A stretch of DNA of 63,610 nucleotides from a virus (lineage: Duplodnaviria; Caudoviricetes). This document shows, piece by piece, positions 44,902 to 53,253 of the stretch. Below the pieces are notes generated by a model. That model was not told the origin of the DNA. It saw only the letters and a program-made list of their open reading frames with translations, and did not search any database. Numbering within the stretch: position 1 is the stretch's first letter; every line of letters starts with the position of its first letter. A program made the translations under genes and the position numbers. Location: positions 1 through 63,610 of the IMG/VR virus record IMGVR_UViG_3300009155_000004. The stretch is one strand, 5' to 3'.

Positions 44902-47900
44902 GTAGTCTGGCAAAGGGGTATTAGTAGATTTATAATATTCTTTTATTTTATACTTATCTTCACTCAATGCTCTTTTCTTAGCAATTCTCTCGGCTTGACT
45001 TACTACTGTTGATGCCTCTGAAGGTAGTAATCCAAAATCTGCAACCAATTGAACTATAGTTAACCAAGCAAGAATTTCTCTATCGTTATCTCTTAAGTAC
45101 TTTGTTGTAACTTTTCCTTGTTGATATTCTTTTTCAAATTTTCCAGAATATGCAGTATTCATTAATTCAATGAGATCAAGAGTTCTTGTTATTGTAATTC
45201 CGGCAGCACCCCAGTTTTCAAACAATTTAGCTTCTCTGTCTTCAGAAAGTTTAAACTCTGTTCCATCTTTTTCATAGCTTTCTCCGCTATATATCTTGTC
45301 ATACTGATCAAGAGCTTTATTTATAGCAGCAACAATAGCTGCATCCGTTAATGGCGCTGGAGATAAAAAGTCTTTAGCAATATTGGTTGCAATTTGTTCG
45401 TTTCTTCTTTTTCTTCTTTTTTCTTTTTCTTCTTCACTTTCCTCTACGCCCATCATGCTTAAAACGCCATTATAAATAATATCTATCAAATATCCACTTA
45501 CAATAGAAAATGTTGCCATTTCTGGAGAGAGAGCACCTAAAGATTTTGCCGCAAGTAGTTTATCTTTTTTTGTAGACACCTTAGATGTCAACGATATAAT
45601 GTCAGAATACATTCTTGTTTTTTGATTTAAAGTAAAGCCCATGAAGGCAAACAATGATTTCTTAATTGCTTGGCTTTTTGGATCTTTAGATGTCATCAAG
45701 TTACCCAATAATGCAGCATCAGATGGGTTTTGTTGCCTATCAACCATGTCTTGAGCATACTGAGCAGCTGATTTATCTACCTTATGTGTTGCCCAATCTA
45801 TATTAGATGTGTCTATTCCTTTTTTCTTAAGTTCTTTTTTATAATAAGCCATAAAAGAAGCTCTTGCAACAAATGTATCTGTATTTTTCAAGAACGTATT
45901 AAGATAATATCTGTTAGCTTTTTTAATTAATTCAATAACTTTTCCTCCTTTAGATCTAGCAGCCTCTTCTATATATTTATTTGCTGTTTTTATTGCTATT
46001 ACAGATTCTAAACTTCTGTTTGCTATTGGAAAACCACAATTATCAATCCAATCATTTACTGCGGCATCAAAAGCAGCTTTTAATCCAAGATACCCCCCAG
46101 AGTTTATAAATGTATTTACCATAACTCCTGCACTCTGTTTTGGTATTTGAGAAATACCACCAAGAACCATTGCCGCACCAGTTGTTCCTATTTCATCTAG
46201 TACTTTATTTAATTCATCTAATCTTGATTTAGGAACAAAGTTCATTCCTTTGATTTCTGCGATATATCCATTTATTCTTGCTTTTATTAAGTTAACATCT
46301 TCAGATCTACCTAATTTAGAGAAAAGTTTTGAATTAAGAAATCCATCAATTCTTCTAATTGGAGCTGCTGTTTCAATATCAATCAATGCAGCCTCGTATG
46401 CGTTTAAATTATTTGTGTCAAAATTAAAATTAATAACTCTATTCTCTCCAAGTCTTGATGGTTTTTTAGCTTCTATTAACACACCTGCTTTTTTCTTTAC
46501 AGTATAGTCCTTAGTTGACATCATGAAAGCAGATTTTTTTTCTTCTCCTATTTCTTTTTCATTATTTATTTTAGAGTGAACATCTGGGGTATAGTTTTTA
46601 TCTTTTCCAAGAGTAGAGTTGTAAATGCTAAGAGATATGTTTTCAAGGCGATCATAAATATCAGACCAAGTATCAATCCACCAATTAACAGCTTCTCTAT
46701 TTTCTTTGCCAGCAGCATCAAAAACTTCTTGAATTGTATTTGCATTCTTTCCAATTCTTTCATATACTTCTTTTATTATTTCGGCTTGAGCTTTTTGCTG
46801 CTCATCGCCTTCCATCATTTTTTCAATGCTTTGTTCTATTAAACCTTTTCTTCTTGCTAACTCATCTTCAGATTCGTTTGTTCTAACTAAAAAAGCAAGT
46901 ACTTCTCTTTCAATACTATTTTCAAGTGTAAAGAAATCTTTTACATCTTTAAATTTTTCATAGTATTCTTCTGCTTTTTGTGAAGCTTTTTTTCTTGCTT
47001 TAGCATTGCCATTAACTATGTCATTAAATCCGCTTAATCCCCTAAATAATGATGAACGATCTTGACCACTTAATGCTGTTTCAAGCAATATATTTAAAGT
47101 AGTAATTTCTTCTGCAATAACGCCACCTATTCTTTTTGAGAAAAATAATTTTAAGTCTCTGAATTTAGCTCCTGTGCTTTGAAATTTCTTTAGGTTTTCT
47201 GATCCGGCATAAGACTCAACAAGCGCACCCATTCCATCTGTTATGCCATTTGTAATAAAATTAGATAAATAATCTAAAGCTAATTTAGCGTTTTGTATAG
47301 ACATATTTTCTATGTCCATATTTAAGAATTGTTTAAGAACTACTTTTTGATCATCACTTAAATCAACAGGCAAACCAGTGACAGGATCAACTCCACTTTC
47401 TAATATTTCTTTTCCTATAGCAGACAAAGAGTTAAACATCTTAACAAGGTATTGCCTTACATCTTCACCCTTGTCAATTGCATCTTGGGTAGCATTATCT
47501 TCAATACCGTCAATTACTTCAAGAATATCGTCTATGCTCATAGAGTCATCTAATATGCCGGCATCTACTAATCCTTGGTACTCAAGAAGAAGGTCATTCT
47601 TAATTTTGTCCGCTTGTTCTTTTGCAGTATCCTCTATGTATTTATTAACGACCTTAATATCAGCCGGTTGCGTGCGCATAACCGCTTGCAATATTTGATT
47701 AGAAATAGACAAGTATTGATCAATATCAGATAAATATTTAGGATTTAATGTCAAGAAATTCTTAGCCATTAAACTAACAGTTGCCTGAACATTTTTTCCT
47801 TTATAAAGTCTTTTTATCTTTTTGATATTATCATTTGCTATTCTAATCTTGTCAGCATATTCAGCATCATTGAATACTTTTGTCATGTAATCAACAAACC

Positions 47901-50900
47901 TATTAACAATAATAGGGTTCTCAAGATTTATCTTTCCAAGTCTATTTATAATAGTTTTAGACTGCTTTGCTGTAATTTTTCCTCCTTTTTCAAGGGCAGC
48001 TATTTCGGCTGATAAGTTTTTTCTTAGCTCATTAATATACTTAACAGCATCTTTTGCAGCTTTTACCTGTAACTTAATTTGTTCTTTTAAAGCAACTGCT
48101 TCATTTATAGTTACCTTAGTAATGTCTTTTATTTTGCCAAGGATCTTATTTACAGATGGTGCTTTCTTAAGCTTTTCTCCTCTGATTTTGTTGAATTCAC
48201 GTATGATTTGCTCACGCTGAGTATCGTCTGCATTTATGTATGCTAATGACTTTTGAATATAGCTAATAGCGTTGGCGGTTGCCTTGTTGTAAGATCCATT
48301 TCTGGCATTCATAGTTTTATCCATAATCCCCTCAACATTATTCATCATTCTGTCGTATCCAGGAATAACCTTAACATCTACCCTTTGTGCACGAGTAGTG
48401 ACAACTGGCTTAGCCTTCTCAATCATGATGGCATTAGATCTATTAATGTCAAAAACACCACTTACTGCACCTCCGTACTGGTTTGTTCCCTCGTATCTTA
48501 CAATGTCCCCGTTAACGTCTGTTACCTTTGCATAGTTCCCATAAACAAATACTTCATCGCCAACCTCAAACACATCGTCCTCTATTTTTTTAAATCCAGT
48601 GTACTCAGCTTCAGGTTTTAATCTTTTTGTTGTCTGTGCTCGATAACTCTTAGGTCCTTTCCAGTTGGTAACAAGCATATCGTATCCGTTCTCTCCGGCA
48701 ACTTTAGCCACCCAAGCTGCTGCGTTGTCCGCGTCAAATGCATATTTTGTTGGATTTTTTTTATTTCCACGGTTTTTGTACTCTTGGAATCTTCTTCTTG
48801 CCTCTTCCTTGAATCCTTGTGGATCGTGAAACACGGTTCCCTTATTTGTGGTTCCGTAGAAATATACTTTATCTTTTGGAACTAAGACTGTATGCGCAAC
48901 ATCTCCAACACCGCCCTCTTTCTGGCCAGCCTTTGTGTAGTACATAGCAACGCCACCAACAGATGATATGGCAGATACCTCTTCTCTGCTTGTAAAGTTT
49001 TTATTAGATCCTGACATCGGCCTAATAACATCTCTTTTCTCGTCAGAGTAATGCACGAACAAGTAATTGCCCTTACCATCGTCTGTCAGAACTTCGTCAA
49101 CCACTTGTGGTACGTTCTTCTGTGAGCGTGACTTTGTTACGCCTTCTTTGGTCTTGGCCTTTTTGCCTTCTCTAAAGAAGCTTGACACGTCCTCACCTTT
49201 AGCAACCTTCTCAGATATGGTAATCATGAATCCAAGGATATCCTCTGGAGTCGCCTGATCTAAAAACTGTTTCTTGCCAGTAAATAGCTCAGCAAATTTA
49301 TTTATGATGTCACCTATCTTCTGTAATAATGTCTTTTGTTGTGCTGTCAATGGTCCCTTCCCGAAACCAGACTCTACTAACATACCACCAAGCTCAGCCA
49401 TGTACTCAGAGTACTTGACATTCTCGTATCCTTTTTGGCTGGCAAATGCATTCAATGCATCTGCGATATCATCAAATCCTTGAGCTCTTAGTTGAGCATC
49501 AATTCCTTCTGTAAATTCTTTGAACTTAGCTTGGTCATTTCCGAAAGCATCGTTCAACATTACTTCCCATGCCTCATGCCCTGCGGTACGGCTATCTGCG
49601 GTAGTCTTATCAAATACCACAGCGAACGGCTTGCCGTCAACAAAGATCGTTTGACCTTTGGTTCCGGTAGCAAATTCCTCAGCTGTCTGTCTCGCCTGTC
49701 TCTCGCCAATTAATGGTGTAAGGGCTTCTATAATTTGATTCTGTACATCTTCAATATTCTCTCCCACTATTACTTTCAATTCTGGAGCCACTACATTAAG
49801 TGCTTCAGCAGATTTATTTAAAGCTTGATCGAAGTTTGAAGCAACCTCTGTGATCTGAGAAAACTCTTCTGGCATAAGGGCCATCTTCTGAGGGGCAAAA
49901 TCCCTTTCTTTTGGAGACAAGTAACCTTCGTCACCTTTCTTTTTTAATGAACCATCAGCGTTTCTCATCTGTGGTCCAAAGTTTACCCAAGAATTTTGAC
50001 CTCTGGTCTCAGTGGTCATCGCTCTTCTGGCCTTTGGGGTGTACATTCTTGCGTGCACGTCCCAAGCATTCTCTTCTCCAACTGCACCAAATCCGTTACC
50101 TCTCTCTGTGTGGCCAAAGAAATCGTGAACAAATCTAAACAAGTCATTATAAAGAAGAGTCTTTCCGGTCTTGTCCTTGAAGCCAGAATCTTGAAGCAAT
50201 TTATTTTGTTTTCTTTGCTCATCTGTGATCGGGGTGTTTCCAAATCCTTGCTCAGTAGAGTAGATGTACATATGCTTGTTATTCTTCACATCGTCAATCA
50301 TCTCCTGTGCGTTAGCATATGGCTCACCTTCTCCTTGCCAGATCTCTACCTCGTATCCAGCGTCTATGATGTCCTGATGCTGCTTTGCAGTCTCATCGGC
50401 CATCGCGTTGTAAGCGTCTTGTACCTCTGGATCGTCTGGAGTGTCTTCTAGGGCCTCGTATGCGTCTGCAATTTTTGATGCGTTATCTATATCTACTGAT
50501 TCTATCTTAACACCCTCTGGCTCAACAATGCCATTTTTTTCTTTGTAAGACTTAGATATCTCTACAGTCTCTGGGTTTGGCTCATTGAATAAACGCTTTC
50601 CAGCAGGTGCTACTTTCCCTTTACTTTCTTCGGTAACGACTTGAGGTTTTGCTTCGGGTTTTCCTTGCTCCACTTCTTGGCCAACTCCGGTTTTTGGCTG
50701 TACAGGTACTTGACCTGAGCCTTGCTTTTGAATGGCATTTGCTTTATTTATTAATTCTTTACGTTTAGTTACTAATTCATTGTATCTCTCATTTAGTGGC
50801 TCCATTACTGCTTTCTTGGCAGCATCAGACATTTCTTTATTGTTCTTTATTGTAATGTACTGATCTTTTATCTGTTGTAATTCTTGATAATTGTCAGCAC

Positions 50901-53253
50901 CTTCTCTTATTTCTTCTGGAGTTAAGTTATTTATTACATCAACTCCGCCATAAATAATTGCTTCGTTTTTCTTTTTTAACTTCTCAATAGAATTGCTAAT
51001 AATTTCCTTTGTCTTTTCATCTTGAATTTCTGGCAAGGTATTGGACAACTCATTTATTTTCTTTGTATTTTTTCTTAACTCACCGCTTTCATCGCTTACA
51101 AATGGAGCAACAATCTTGGCACCTATAATTGGAGATGCAGTAATTACTCCCCCCATAATAGCTCCTGTAAGGTAAGCATCTTTTAATCCATCAAATACAT
51201 TTACATTTTTGTTATTTAGAACATATCTATCTACAAGATTACCACCTACTTGTGCAACAACTTCAGATATACCTTCTTGGTTTGCGCTCAAACCAGCTTC
51301 GGCTACATTTTCAATTGTTCTTTTAGCTGCATTCTTTAATCCTCCTTTTAGCTCTGCCCTCATAGCATCAAGCTCAAGCTTGGTTGCGCCATTAGCAGCA
51401 GCAGACATTACCCTATATGATGGTAATGCATTTTTAAGCATATTGCTTTCAATCTTTTCAGATACATATTCAAATGCACCTGTTGCAATTGATGCAATAA
51501 TTTTTTGAGACTCTGTAAAGTTTTCTTTATCTTTTATTTCATTGTATTTTGTTCCGGCAGCAGACGAAGCTAACAATCCCAATCCCCAAGCAGATCCACC
51601 TGTTGATGCGTTGATGAATAATTGAGGCAACTGTTCAGCCATAATTCCTCCAGAGACATTAAAGAAATCTCCAACTGAATTAATATCGTCAATTGATTTT
51701 CTTCTTTCAACAGCACCTTCAATTTTGGATGCCATCTCGTCCAAGAACTTTATCTTATCTGTATTTGCATAATCAACAGAAACACCAGGAGCATACTTGC
51801 CAACCATTTGAGCAGCACCCATTAATCCTGTTGTCAACCTAACACCTGATGCGCCAACTTTTGCAGACAAGTTTAATAATGTGTTGTAATTTCTTTTAAA
51901 TAAATCAAGTTCGTTTTGAAAGTCACCTAAGTTATTTACATCATTATCAATATTTTTATAGTTATCAAGCAAATCTGTATTGACAGCCATTGCCTTGTCA
52001 TATGTCTCTTTGTATGCTTGAGCTTGTTCTGGTGTAAGATTGTTTAAGTCTTTTCCATATGAAGACAATTCATTTGTAAGAGATTGAAGTTCAAGTGCTT
52101 TAGATTTGAAACTTGCTTCTTGTGCCTTTGTTTTGTTAACTACAGATGATAATGTTGCCCGAATTTGTTCAGCTTGATTTTCATCTTCTGGCATATAAGG
52201 CTGGCCAGTATTTAGGGCCCACCATTTTGCATATCCTTCAGTAATTCCTCTTTGATTGTCGCCTACAAAATCTTCAATAAGGCTGTCAGTTGCTTTCCCT
52301 TCTAACTCTTTTCTTCTAATATCCTTAGCCATTTGAAGTATTTCTTCTTCATTTGCCTTGCCATTAGGGTTTTGCTTTGCGTACATTGCTGTTGCTTTGA
52401 TAAGAGCCTTATCCCTTCCTGTCTCTGCCATAGGCAAAAGATTTGCAACATTTGCATTTTTCAAAAATGAATTGTATAGACCTGCAATTTTATCAGTAAA
52501 TGTACCTTCTCCAAATTCCTTATTTAATTGGTCTTCTGCTTCTGCAAGCTTCTTCTTACCCTCTTCTGAAAATCCAAGTTGAATATTGTCTTTTACAAAT
52601 AAGTTTTTAATATCTTCATCATCAAGTTGGATGTCGCTCTGTAATGACTTATCAAGAGCGTCAAGCTTATCTATTCTTTCCTGCGTAGGAATAGGTGCTT
52701 TTGGCTTTAAGTCTAATCTAACAGGCTCTATTGGCTTTTGCGTTGCAGCACCAGTAGGCTGTAATGATACAGTAGGAATATTCTTTTGTATAATCTTATT
52801 GGCAGTCTGTAGATCCTCGTTCAATAATGGATCGCTGGCAATATTTTTATTGCTTGCTCTTAATTGTTCAAGTTGTTTTGATGCATTCTTTATAGTTAAT
52901 GCGTCATTCTTTTGAGCAGCATCTTGAATTGTACGAGTTAACTCTTGGTGTCTTTGCCAGTCGCTTGACTCAATTTTTTTATTATACGCTGACGGATTCT
53001 TTGGAGATGCCGACAAACCAATTGGCTGACCCGAAGACGAAACAGATGCCCCAACGTCTTTTTTTTTTACCTCAGAGAAATACTTACTTTTAAAAGTATT
53101 TATGTCGTTTGTATATAATTCTTGCTCACTGAGTTTTTTATACAATTCATTTTGACCTTCTTCAGATCCATATTTAGCAACAAAATCATTGTAGCTATTT
53201 GTATATAATTGTTCGCTATATAGCTTGTCGTATAATTCTTTTGATCCTGGCAT
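44893..53253 (-). CDS. Giant internal virion/ejection protein (polyvalent multidomain protein)
   Basis: 2786 aa, last of three ejection-type genes; contains an FVHDFFGH...GEENAW...TETRGQNSWVNFGP domain, a degenerate HEAWE metallopeptidase-like motif and an HYS..YYT ART-like segment. Confidence 0.75.
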   Translation of the reverse strand: MPGSKELYDKLYSEQLYTNSYNDFVAKYGSEEGQNELYKKLSEQELYTNDINTFKSKYFSEVKKKDVGASVSSSGQPIGLSASPKNPSAYNKKIESSDWQRHQELTRTIQDAAQKNDALTIKNASKQLEQLRASNKNIASDPLLNEDLQTANKIIQKNIPTVSLQPTGAATQKPIEPVRLDLKPKAPIPTQERIDKLDALDKSLQSDIQLDDEDIKNLFVKDNIQLGFSEEGKKKLAEAEDQLNKEFGEGTFTDKIAGLYNSFLKNANVANLLPMAETGRDKALIKATAMYAKQNPNGKANEEEILQMAKDIRRKELEGKATDSLIEDFVGDNQRGITEGYAKWWALNTGQPYMPEDENQAEQIRATLSSVVNKTKAQEASFKSKALELQSLTNELSSYGKDLNNLTPEQAQAYKETYDKAMAVNTDLLDNYKNIDNDVNNLGDFQNELDLFKRNYNTLLNLSAKVGASGVRLTTGLMGAAQMVGKYAPGVSVDYANTDKIKFLDEMASKIEGAVERRKSIDDINSVGDFFNVSGGIMAEQLPQLFINASTGGSAWGLGLLASSAAGTKYNEIKDKENFTESQKIIASIATGAFEYVSEKIESNMLKNALPSYRVMSAAANGATKLELDAMRAELKGGLKNAAKRTIENVAEAGLSANQEGISEVVAQVGGNLVDRYVLNNKNVNVFDGLKDAYLTGAIMGGVITASPIIGAKIVAPFVSDESGELRKNTKKINELSNTLPEIQDEKTKEIISNSIEKLKKKNEAIIYGGVDVINNLTPEEIREGADNYQELQQIKDQYITIKNNKEMSDAAKKAVMEPLNERYNELVTKRKELINKANAIQKQGSGQVPVQPKTGVGQEVEQGKPEAKPQVVTEESKGKVAPAGKRLFNEPNPETVEISKSYKEKNGIVEPEGVKIESVDIDNASKIADAYEALEDTPDDPEVQDAYNAMADETAKQHQDIIDAGYEVEIWQGEGEPYANAQEMIDDVKNNKHMYIYSTEQGFGNTPITDEQRKQNKLLQDSGFKDKTGKTLLYNDLFRFVHDFFGHTERGNGFGAVGEENAWDVHARMYTPKARRAMTTETRGQNSWVNFGPQMRNADGSLKKKGDEGYLSPKERDFAPQKMALMPEEFSQITEVASNFDQALNKSAEALNVVAPELKVIVGENIEDVQNQIIEALTPLIGERQARQTAEEFATGTKGQTIFVDGKPFAVVFDKTTADSRTAGHEAWEVMLNDAFGNDQAKFKEFTEGIDAQLRAQGFDDIADALNAFASQKGYENVKYSEYMAELGGMLVESGFGKGPLTAQQKTLLQKIGDIINKFAELFTGKKQFLDQATPEDILGFMITISEKVAKGEDVSSFFREGKKAKTKEGVTKSRSQKNVPQVVDEVLTDDGKGNYLFVHYSDEKRDVIRPMSGSNKNFTSREEVSAISSVGGVAMYYTKAGQKEGGVGDVAHTVLVPKDKVYFYGTTNKGTVFHDPQGFKEEARRRFQEYKNRGNKKNPTKYAFDADNAAAWVAKVAGENGYDMLVTNWKGPKSYRAQTTKRLKPEAEYTGFKKIEDDVFEVGDEVFVYGNYAKVTDVNGDIVRYEGTNQYGGAVSGVFDINRSNAIMIEKAKPVVTTRAQRVDVKVIPGYDRMMNNVEGIMDKTMNARNGSYNKATANAISYIQKSLAYINADDTQREQIIREFNKIRGEKLKKAPSVNKILGKIKDITKVTINEAVALKEQIKLQVKAAKDAVKYINELRKNLSAEIAALEKGGKITAKQSKTIINRLGKINLENPIIVNRFVDYMTKVFNDAEYADKIRIANDNIKKIKRLYKGKNVQATVSLMAKNFLTLNPKYLSDIDQYLSISNQILQAVMRTQPADIKVVNKYIEDTAKEQADKIKNDLLLEYQGLVDAGILDDSMSIDDILEVIDGIEDNATQDAIDKGEDVRQYLVKMFNSLSAIGKEILESGVDPVTGLPVDLSDDQKVVLKQFLNMDIENMSIQNAKLALDYLSNFITNGITDGMGALVESYAGSENLKKFQSTGAKFRDLKLFFSKRIGGVIAEEITTLNILLETALSGQDRSSLFRGLSGFNDIVNGNAKARKKASQKAEEYYEKFKDVKDFFTLENSIEREVLAFLVRTNESEDELARRKGLIEQSIEKMMEGDEQQKAQAEIIKEVYERIGKNANTIQEVFDAAGKENREAVNWWIDTWSDIYDRLENISLSIYNSTLGKDKNYTPDVHSKINNEKEIGEEKKSAFMMSTKDYTVKKKAGVLIEAKKPSRLGENRVINFNFDTNNLNAYEAALIDIETAAPIRRIDGFLNSKLFSKLGRSEDVNLIKARINGYIAEIKGMNFVPKSRLDELNKVLDEIGTTGAAMVLGGISQIPKQSAGVMVNTFINSGGYLGLKAAFDAAVNDWIDNCGFPIANRSLESVIAIKTANKYIEEAARSKGGKVIELIKKANRYYLNTFLKNTDTFVARASFMAYYKKELKKKGIDTSNIDWATHKVDKSAAQYAQDMVDRQQNPSDAALLGNLMTSKDPKSQAIKKSLFAFMGFTLNQKTRMYSDIISLTSKVSTKKDKLLAAKSLGALSPEMATFSIVSGYLIDIIYNGVLSMMGVEESEEEKEKRRKRRNEQIATNIAKDFLSPAPLTDAAIVAAINKALDQYDKIYSGESYEKDGTEFKLSEDREAKLFENWGAAGITITRTLDLIELMNTAYSGKFEKEYQQGKVTTKYLRDNDREILAWLTIVQLVADFGLLPSEASTVVSQAERIAKKRALSEDKYKIKEYYKSTNTPLPDYLK
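50610..50738 (-). CDS. Nested out-of-frame small basic protein (42 aa)
   Basis: MPFKSKAQVKYLYSQKPELAKKWSKENPKQNLKSLPKKVKGK with an A-rich leader AATAAATAAAGCAA. Confidence 0.65.
   Translation of the reverse strand: MPFKSKAQVKYLYSQKPELAKKWSKENPKQNLKSLPKKVKGK

Follow-up and report, generated by a model that had tools for sequence, protein, structure and literature searches.

Does a short open reading frame (ORF) that lies out of frame within a giant phage gene encode a protein of its own, or is it a by-product of the sequence around it? The question is raised by a 42-codon ORF at 50610-50738 on the minus strand of a 63,610-nucleotide stretch of tailed-phage DNA (Caudoviricetes; IMG/VR record IMGVR_UViG_3300009155_000004), which was analysed at its full length and is called the window below. 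The ORF is nested within a gene for a 2786-amino-acid (aa) protein, referred to as the giant gene or the host gene. The first-pass annotation of the window had proposed that the segment is a real dual-coding region missed by standard gene callers. Homology, conservation and selection on both frames support this proposal, and it is very probable that 50610-50738 is a genuine dual-coding gene.

Position and frame of the nested ORF

The position, the strand and the 42-aa peptide given in the first-pass annotation agree exactly with the ORF listing. The ORF is complete from start to stop and is wholly contained in another gene. Its ATG lies 2515 nucleotides from the beginning of the host gene (53253 - 50738); because division of this distance by three leaves a remainder of one, the nested ORF is read in the host's +1 frame, out of frame as had been claimed. 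The same annotation had described the host-frame segment as a low-complexity linker at a domain boundary. Its composition is indeed strongly biased (Table 1), and the likeness of the N-terminal host module to its relatives stops at about residues 878-882, thus the linker is located at a module boundary. The next recognisable similarity, to phrog_3170, starts at residue 891; the giant protein has no other PHROG match and matched no Pfam family. Its closest named homologue, from Elemovirus, is annotated as 'structural protein' and not, as in the first-pass annotation, as an ejection protein.

A length of 42 codons is not unusual in itself, as 5 of the 75 ATG-initiated ORFs in the +1 frame of the giant gene are at least that long. 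Judged from sequence comparison, what raises the ORF above chance is its homology to a profile trained on non-nested proteins, together with its conservation in relatives, rather than its length.

The nested peptide belongs to a widespread family

A hidden Markov model (HMM) was built from the first 46 residues of 142 long proteins that carry the same module in frame, and was run against the 1786 six-frame segments of the window. Only the nested ORF was matched (E 4.2e-18). As the training set consisted of non-nested N-termini only, this homology is independent of the other nested copies. A search within the phage's own genome (E 4.6e-26) found the nested ORF to be the single copy of the module in the window.

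The first-pass annotation had taken the Met-Pro-Phe-Lys-Ser (MPFKS) start as part of the pattern of a widespread, free-standing small basic phage protein, and had named a homology search with the 42-aa peptide as a check. Homologues were found in abundance. At E <= 1e-3 an exhaustive profile search yielded 4826 cluster representatives, of which 859 remained at E <= 1e-10; a word-indexed search gave 29 small proteins, 30-54 aa in length, and at least 394 loci were confirmed among the 600 pattern matches listed in a scan of viral contigs. Some copies are free-standing; a tblastn search with one of these gave seven records, all from Streptomyces phages. There were also 245 matches to longer proteins (122-2000 aa). 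In 136 of the 150 best cluster representatives the match began at residue 1, and of the 120 longer homologues listed 103 had the five-residue start motif at residue 1, 11 had it internally and six had it in inexact form. The preference for residue 1 in both sets indicates that the Met of the nested ORF is the start in use. The partners of the module in the long proteins are mostly unannotated, a few having DUF5661, DUF3293/SAM-lyase-like, Phage_lysozyme2 or LigD_N domains.

Invariant or nearly invariant columns of the family are M1, P2, F3, K4, S5, Q8, P17, L35 and P36. Besides the profile match, the nested peptide has the Met-Pro-Phe start, Gln8 and Pro17, and the Leu-Pro pair followed by a basic tail, by which we define membership in the 'MPFKS' family. 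One nested copy (L103:7539) begins Met-Phe-Lys-Ser; the Pro codon is missing through a 3-nucleotide deletion that keeps both frames.

Pfam gave no match to the peptide at E <= 10. Of the catalogued families, phrog_1375 alone was touched; it has no assigned function, and the match is weak and partial (E 1.8e-4, 22.8 bits; peptide residues 3-27 aligned with positions 17-41 of the 70-position profile). In the ESM Atlas the search led to unnamed small viral clusters only, apart from a weak lead to DUF3008 (PF11450; lead score 0.85, the family being present on 15% of the cluster members), which was rejected as an identity in view of the Pfam result. A profile search of the PDB with the peptide gave a single chance match (E 0.76), and Foldseek found no match in the PDB at E <= 0.001. 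The motif was not found in the family sense in the main texts of the literature searched; the one phage match was an unrelated C-terminal string. The module represents a large undescribed family, without a Pfam model, that heads many long phage proteins.

Conservation in relatives and genomic settings

For a set of relatives selected without reference to the peptide, the C-terminal 1000 residues of the giant protein were aligned with six relatives, which led to 80 loci, and the peptide HMM was run on all their six-frame segments. Interruption of the frame in close relatives, together with a lack of homologues, had been named beforehand as what would speak against a gene. In the 76 giant ORFs with complete 5' ends, the nested ORF was intact in 64, always at +1, and a free-standing copy was present in three. 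The four truncated giant loci had no copy. The ORF is likewise intact in Elemovirus, a group of cultured phages of Flavobacterium sp. BAL314, of which 68 records match the full-length peptide at 64-66% identity. One of them, MT497067.1, has a 42-codon ATG-to-stop ORF with the same +1 offset as in the window. In all 40 GenBank rows listed, and in MT497067.1, 'structural protein' is the only annotation over the match, in line with the expectation that gene callers miss the nested ORF. It is a conserved gene, overlooked by annotation pipelines because it is out of frame within another gene. A blastn search of phages with the 3.5 kb between 49000 and 52500 of the window returned no match, and in the literature searched Elemovirus was found only by mentions of the name, not in a paper describing it.

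MT497067.1 (Elemovirus elemoC) contains, at L001:5605-5637, a truncated second copy of the start of the small ORF, 10 codons long and about 400 nucleotides upstream of the full one. It accompanies a repeat of the host-frame motif QEDAVQKQ.

A second set, selected with the peptide, comprised the best 80 of the at least 394 confirmed viral loci, 76 of them with the exact motif. In these 76 loci the module was within a giant ORF (or one truncated by a contig end) in 32 cases and within an ORF of 385-440 aa in 18; the remaining 26 copies were mostly free-standing. In the giant and the mid-size groups the host frame was always the small frame minus one. The two sets, which share contigs and contain duplicates, were combined to 84 unique nested sequences with giant hosts. 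These copies are 37-84 codons long (43 codons in 20 of the 84) and have kept both ATG and stop.

In the mid-size group the small ORF lies at +1 within the first 27-124 codons of an acidic gene that directly follows the portal gene, in the position of a scaffold gene. Thus, the gene order in L056 is terminase, portal, a 387-aa acidic gene (L056:9931-11094) with the small ORF from 10001 (codons 27-77), and structural protein. Other loci of this type are L017, L020, L031, L032, L040, L043-L045, L047, L049-L051, L055, L067 and L071. These phages have terminase, portal and phrog_13704 head families in common with the window, where the small ORF is in the giant gene. Mid-size and giant hosts are alike only around the overlap, and four mid-size hosts compared with PHROGs and Pfam gave no match except a sub-threshold one to SBP_bac_3. 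One dual-coding cassette is therefore found in two unrelated kinds of host gene, giant virion genes and 385-440-aa post-portal genes.

Free-standing copies have diverse surroundings. In L038 the order is portal, small gene, scaffold, major head protein; the module adjoins the portal gene in this locus as well as in L056 and L079. Gene 48 of Streptomyces phage FlowerPower (L163:4001-4219), annotated as a 72-aa 'hypothetical protein', starts with the module and is located between 'peptidase' and 'holin' genes, a context that differs from the head-module contexts. In three relatives a free-standing small gene begins 6 nucleotides past the stop codon of the giant gene (L152:13225-13395, L156:13315-13485, and L158 with the same peptide and position as L156). 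The frame equivalent to the host frame has 6-11 stops in L152 and L156. This arrangement may be a snapshot of a state in which the genes have not been fused.

Selection on both frames

The substitution comparison was a descriptive one, made on related pairs. Among 23 close loci, the pairwise differences at positions 1, 2 and 3 of the small-frame codons were 0.182, 0.101 and 0.375, and aa identity was 80% in the small frame versus 52% in the host frame, as expected of purifying selection acting on the small frame. Across 23 and 21 loci the identity of the flanks is no more than 15-17%, too low for a codon alignment, hence 25 pairs with alignable flanks (55-98% aa identity) were chosen. In the flanks of these pairs the differences at host positions 1, 2 and 3 were 0.232, 0.187 and 0.394, as opposed to 0.208, 0.094 and 0.058 in the overlap, where change falls on position 3 of the small frame. 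The fall at the third host position is the synonymous-site constraint that the first-pass annotation had suggested looking for.

The host frame is also preserved. Relative to the small ORF, no unique nested copy has a stop in the -1 frame (84 of 84 open with giant hosts, 19 of 19 with mid-size hosts), compared with 4 open among 25 other unique copies; 21 of the latter are broken, and the mean is 4.4 stops. A stop in the host frame arises where a small-frame codon ending in T precedes a codon beginning with AA, AG or GA. Such junctions were absent from giant-nested (0/1728) and mid-size-nested copies (0/396), compared with 110 of 493 in the other copies. Taken together, the codon-position pattern and the avoidance of stop-making junctions show that both readings are maintained.

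These data bear on two other explanations of the overlap. According to one, the giant gene is in reality two genes that flank the small one, and the open host frame between them is accidental and untranslated. It would fit the free recombination of the flanking modules and the three relatives in which the small gene stands alone just past the giant stop. However, with the host frame open in all 103 unique nested copies and no stop-making junction among 2124, selection on the host frame is needed to account for the data. There is neither a gap nor a restart context, and the mid-size hosts have a conserved N-terminus upstream of the overlap. We regard this explanation as extremely unlikely.

According to the other, the constraint acts on the nucleic acid, as a recombination joint, an RNA structure or a binding site, and the +1 frame is a by-product or an untranslated, decaying relic. 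The segment does lie at a module junction of a mosaic gene, and the overlap is a sharply bounded island of similarity amid diverged, mosaic flanks: contigs of other phages in metagenomes align over about 50619-50717 only, and the summed contig depth at 50636-50709 rises to 39-72 from about 5-10 beside it (three freshwater DNA metagenomes). The concentration of change on third positions of the small frame is, however, the pattern of protein coding. A nucleic-acid element would also not account for the retention of ATG, stop and length, for the strong profile homology to non-overlapping proteins, or for the occurrence of cysteines in pairs only (see below), and in a relic stops would have accumulated over the divergence seen in the flanks. 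There is very little probability left for this explanation.

Start site and leader

The nested ATG is present in all 84 unique copies; the host residue overlapping it is Asp, Asn or Tyr, all with xAT codons, and in the window it is Asn839, encoded by AAT. The first-pass annotation had seen an A-rich leader of the Bacteroidota type, and the base composition bears this out. In the window 65% of the 20 bases before the ATG are A, the values for comparison being 49% (standard deviation, SD, 16%) for 30 ORF starts in the same genome, all of ORFs with 150 aa or more, and 31.6% for the strand. Over the 84 nested loci the upstream 20 bases contain on average 57.5% A, versus 35.6% (SD 11.6%) before other internal ATGs in the same genes, only 3.4% of which reach the mean of the nested starts. 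The adenines are concentrated at particular positions: their frequency is 0.63, 0.88, 0.77 and 0.76 at -14 to -11, 0.64 at -6 and 0.67 at -3, with G at 0.07 or less from -14 to -11. The host codon at -13 to -11 is AAA 45 times and AAG once, and elsewhere in these genes AAA makes up 59% of the Lys codons.

In Flavobacterium johnsoniae, where Shine-Dalgarno sequences are not used, initiation is promoted by A at -14 to -11 (especially -12 and -13), at -6 and at -3 (Baez et al. 2019, PMC6847099). The nested leaders have the adenines, the scarcity of G and the AUG start described there (PMC6847099) and are putative initiation regions of this Bacteroidota type.

The TAnnTTTG promoter motif does not occur within 300 nucleotides upstream of the nested ATG. 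An internal promoter of this type is thus not indicated, which makes internal initiation on the mRNA of the giant gene the likeliest route to the peptide. The small frame is closed 1-14 codons upstream of the ATG in the first 24 giant-nested loci of the peptide-selected set (L001-L029), and 17-30 codons upstream in three more distant ones. Cultured Elemovirus phages of Flavobacterium carry the cassette, so that internal initiation without a Shine-Dalgarno sequence and the role of the peptide are directly accessible to experiment.

Proposed mechanism and competing explanation

We propose that the giant gene is translated straight through, the segment serving as a flexible linker between modules, and that on the same mRNA ribosomes would also initiate independently at the internal ATG (50738), in an A-rich context without a Shine-Dalgarno sequence of the kind used by Bacteroidota ribosomes. 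The product would be a separate, strongly basic protein of 42 residues, a two-helix hairpin with a Lys-rich tail. The small gene, which in other genomes is free-standing or encodes the very beginning of long proteins, is probably the older partner; the linker frame of the giant gene would have been laid over it when read-through in the -1 frame joined two flanking coding regions into one ORF.

Alternatively, the small frame could be reached by programmed frameshifting. A +1 slip would yield a truncated N-terminal protein with a basic tail, or an internal start followed by a -1 slip near the Lys-rich tail would yield a C-terminal protein tagged with the module, similar to the many long proteins that start with it. 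The module does head long proteins in 103 of the 120 longer homologues listed, and the window has a heptamer of the X_XXY_YYZ type, AAAGGGA, two codons before the stop. Across the nested copies, however, canonical slippery heptamers were found in the last 16 codons of only seven of 84, as against 14.6 expected from codon shuffles, and none was conserved; the lysines of the tail are encoded mostly by AAG and not by runs of A. The invariant ATG, the closure of the small frame shortly upstream of it and the existence of free-standing copies with the same tail also speak for a gene with its own start. Programmed frameshifting is thus improbable.

Several observations weigh against a separate, independently initiated gene. 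The one that suits frameshifting best is P0139, a 1075-aa protein on a 45.6-kb contig, in which a giant-like N-terminal part is followed by the module in frame at the C-terminus, from residue 1034. A natural variant of the frame, an indel from sequencing or an indication of frameshifting are possible reasons, and a frameshift product accounts for it better than a separate gene does. For nine of the 76 giant genes no copy turned up within 10 kb at a threshold as loose as E <= 50, and in these phages the peptide may be dispensable or encoded elsewhere. The loci in the substitution comparisons are related and partly redundant (L101 and L102, like L116 and L117, are identical in peptide and position), thus the counts are not independent. 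The argument from the leader draws on the host of the related Elemovirus phages, a Flavobacterium, rather than on that of the window phage, and as the leader adenines are also part of host codons, the A-richness could derive in part from host Lys and Asn codons, which the 45:1 ratio of AAA to AAG counters at one position only. RNA-derived contigs, all from one sequencing run, cover only 50845-51211, outside the ORF, and are uninformative about it. Finally, the neighbours of the free-standing copies are heterogeneous (ligase, portal, terminase, ribonucleotide reductase, structural, tail-fibre and lysis genes).

Features of the window

The features of the dual-coding locus are collected in Table 1. 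The window, which has direct terminal repeats, is a whole virus genome with a completeness rating of 100%. It contains a second giant virion-protein gene, of at least 1960 aa (57706-63588, minus strand), which matches phrog_14478. The sequencing runs that match the window best are freshwater metagenomes, and the best of them may be the sample of origin.

Table 1. Coordinates of the nested gene and of the host-gene features around it
Feature	Coordinates	Strand	Description
Nested small gene	50610-50738	minus	ATG to TAG, 42 codons (42 aa), +1 frame of the giant gene
Host giant gene	44893-53253	minus	2786-aa mosaic virion-protein ORF, reads straight through the nested gene
A-rich leader of the nested gene (-20 to -1)	50739-50758	minus	Within host coding sequence; putative Shine-Dalgarno-less initiation region
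Dual-coding segment, host frame	50610-50741	minus	Q/G/P/V/E-rich low-complexity linker between modules, about residues 838-881
First recognisable downstream host module	49969-50583	minus	Residues 891-1095 (coordinates calculated from these); phrog_3170, E 1.2e-21

The peptide and its possible role

The 42-aa peptide has 13 Lys and Arg residues versus two Asp and Glu. AlphaFold2, with an alignment of 49 sequences, predicted helices at residues 6-15 and 17-26 followed by an extended Lys-rich tail (mean predicted local distance difference test score, pLDDT, 84.6); on this model the nested ORF likely encodes a folded product. Cysteines are distributed in a way that fits two helices in contact, as they occur only in pairs: among 359 unique N-termini, 345 had none, 14 had exactly two and none had a single one. 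The paired positions are 12 and 22, or 13 and 20; L100, L101, L122 and L057 are examples of loci with a pair. The former pair characterises a subfamily that includes the Elemovirus copies and has a two-residue insertion before it; the latter was seen in one free-standing copy. The pairing suggests a bridge across the helical hairpin.

The module is located near portal or scaffold genes in some genomes, is N-terminal in long proteins, one of which has a lysozyme domain, and is nested in virion-protein genes. These settings lead us to guess, tentatively and with the odds somewhat against it, that the peptide or module is a small adaptor which helps in assembling the head or loading the virion, in roughly the manner of MuF/gp7-type domains. 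The argument from portal synteny is weakened by the heterogeneous neighbours of the free-standing copies. A complex prediction with the portal and peptide alignments gave a score of 0.00, which speaks neither for nor against binding. In a wider and rather unlikely version of the same idea, the approximately 40-residue 'MPFKS' module would be a general, hitherto unrecognised adaptor at the N-terminus of phage proteins, through which these are loaded into the head or onto the packaged DNA for delivery, a MuF in miniature; the giant genes of these aquatic phages would have fused cargo genes across the adaptor gene, and the surviving free peptide may set the loading of the giant protein.

Comparison with known systems

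The gp7 protein of phage SPP1 binds the portal protein. MuF/SPP1 gp7-type head-incorporation domains are found at the N-terminus of polyvalent phage proteins (Iyer et al. 2017, PMC5512222). The present module, similarly, is either free-standing or heads long phage proteins with several domains, and in some genomes it is encoded beside the portal gene. With its approximately 40 residues the 'MPFKS' module is far smaller than a MuF domain, its contexts are heterogeneous, no sequence or fold relation to MuF was found, and portal binding would be attributed to it only by analogy.

In the overlapping-gene literature searched no comparable case was named. Nested +1-frame phage genes as such are already known, Rz/Rz1 and the overlaps of phiX174 being examples. 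The Rz1 gene of phage lambda encodes a lipoprotein, is wholly contained in Rz in the +1 frame and acts together with Rz in lysis, both products being made from one mRNA. The present case is alike in that a larger phage gene accommodates, in its +1 frame and on the same strand, a small complete gene with its own start codon. Unlike Rz1, the peptide described here looks like a soluble, basic helical hairpin without a lipobox, and its host is a giant mosaic virion-protein gene. A further difference is that here the nested gene is probably the older one, being found also free-standing or as an N-terminal module.

With the classical overprinting cases in small viruses, among them the overlaps of phiX174 (reviewed in PMC8227390), our locus shares the use of two frames, one of them compositionally odd and disordered-looking, and the suppression of synonymous change. 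In the usual model of overprinting, a new ORF arises inside an older gene. Here, in contrast, the low-complexity and apparently new frame is that of the large gene, and it is the small ORF that has thousands of non-overlapping relatives. This would be an unusual route to a gene overlap, in which the linker of a giant gene, as that gene grew, came to overprint an old small one.

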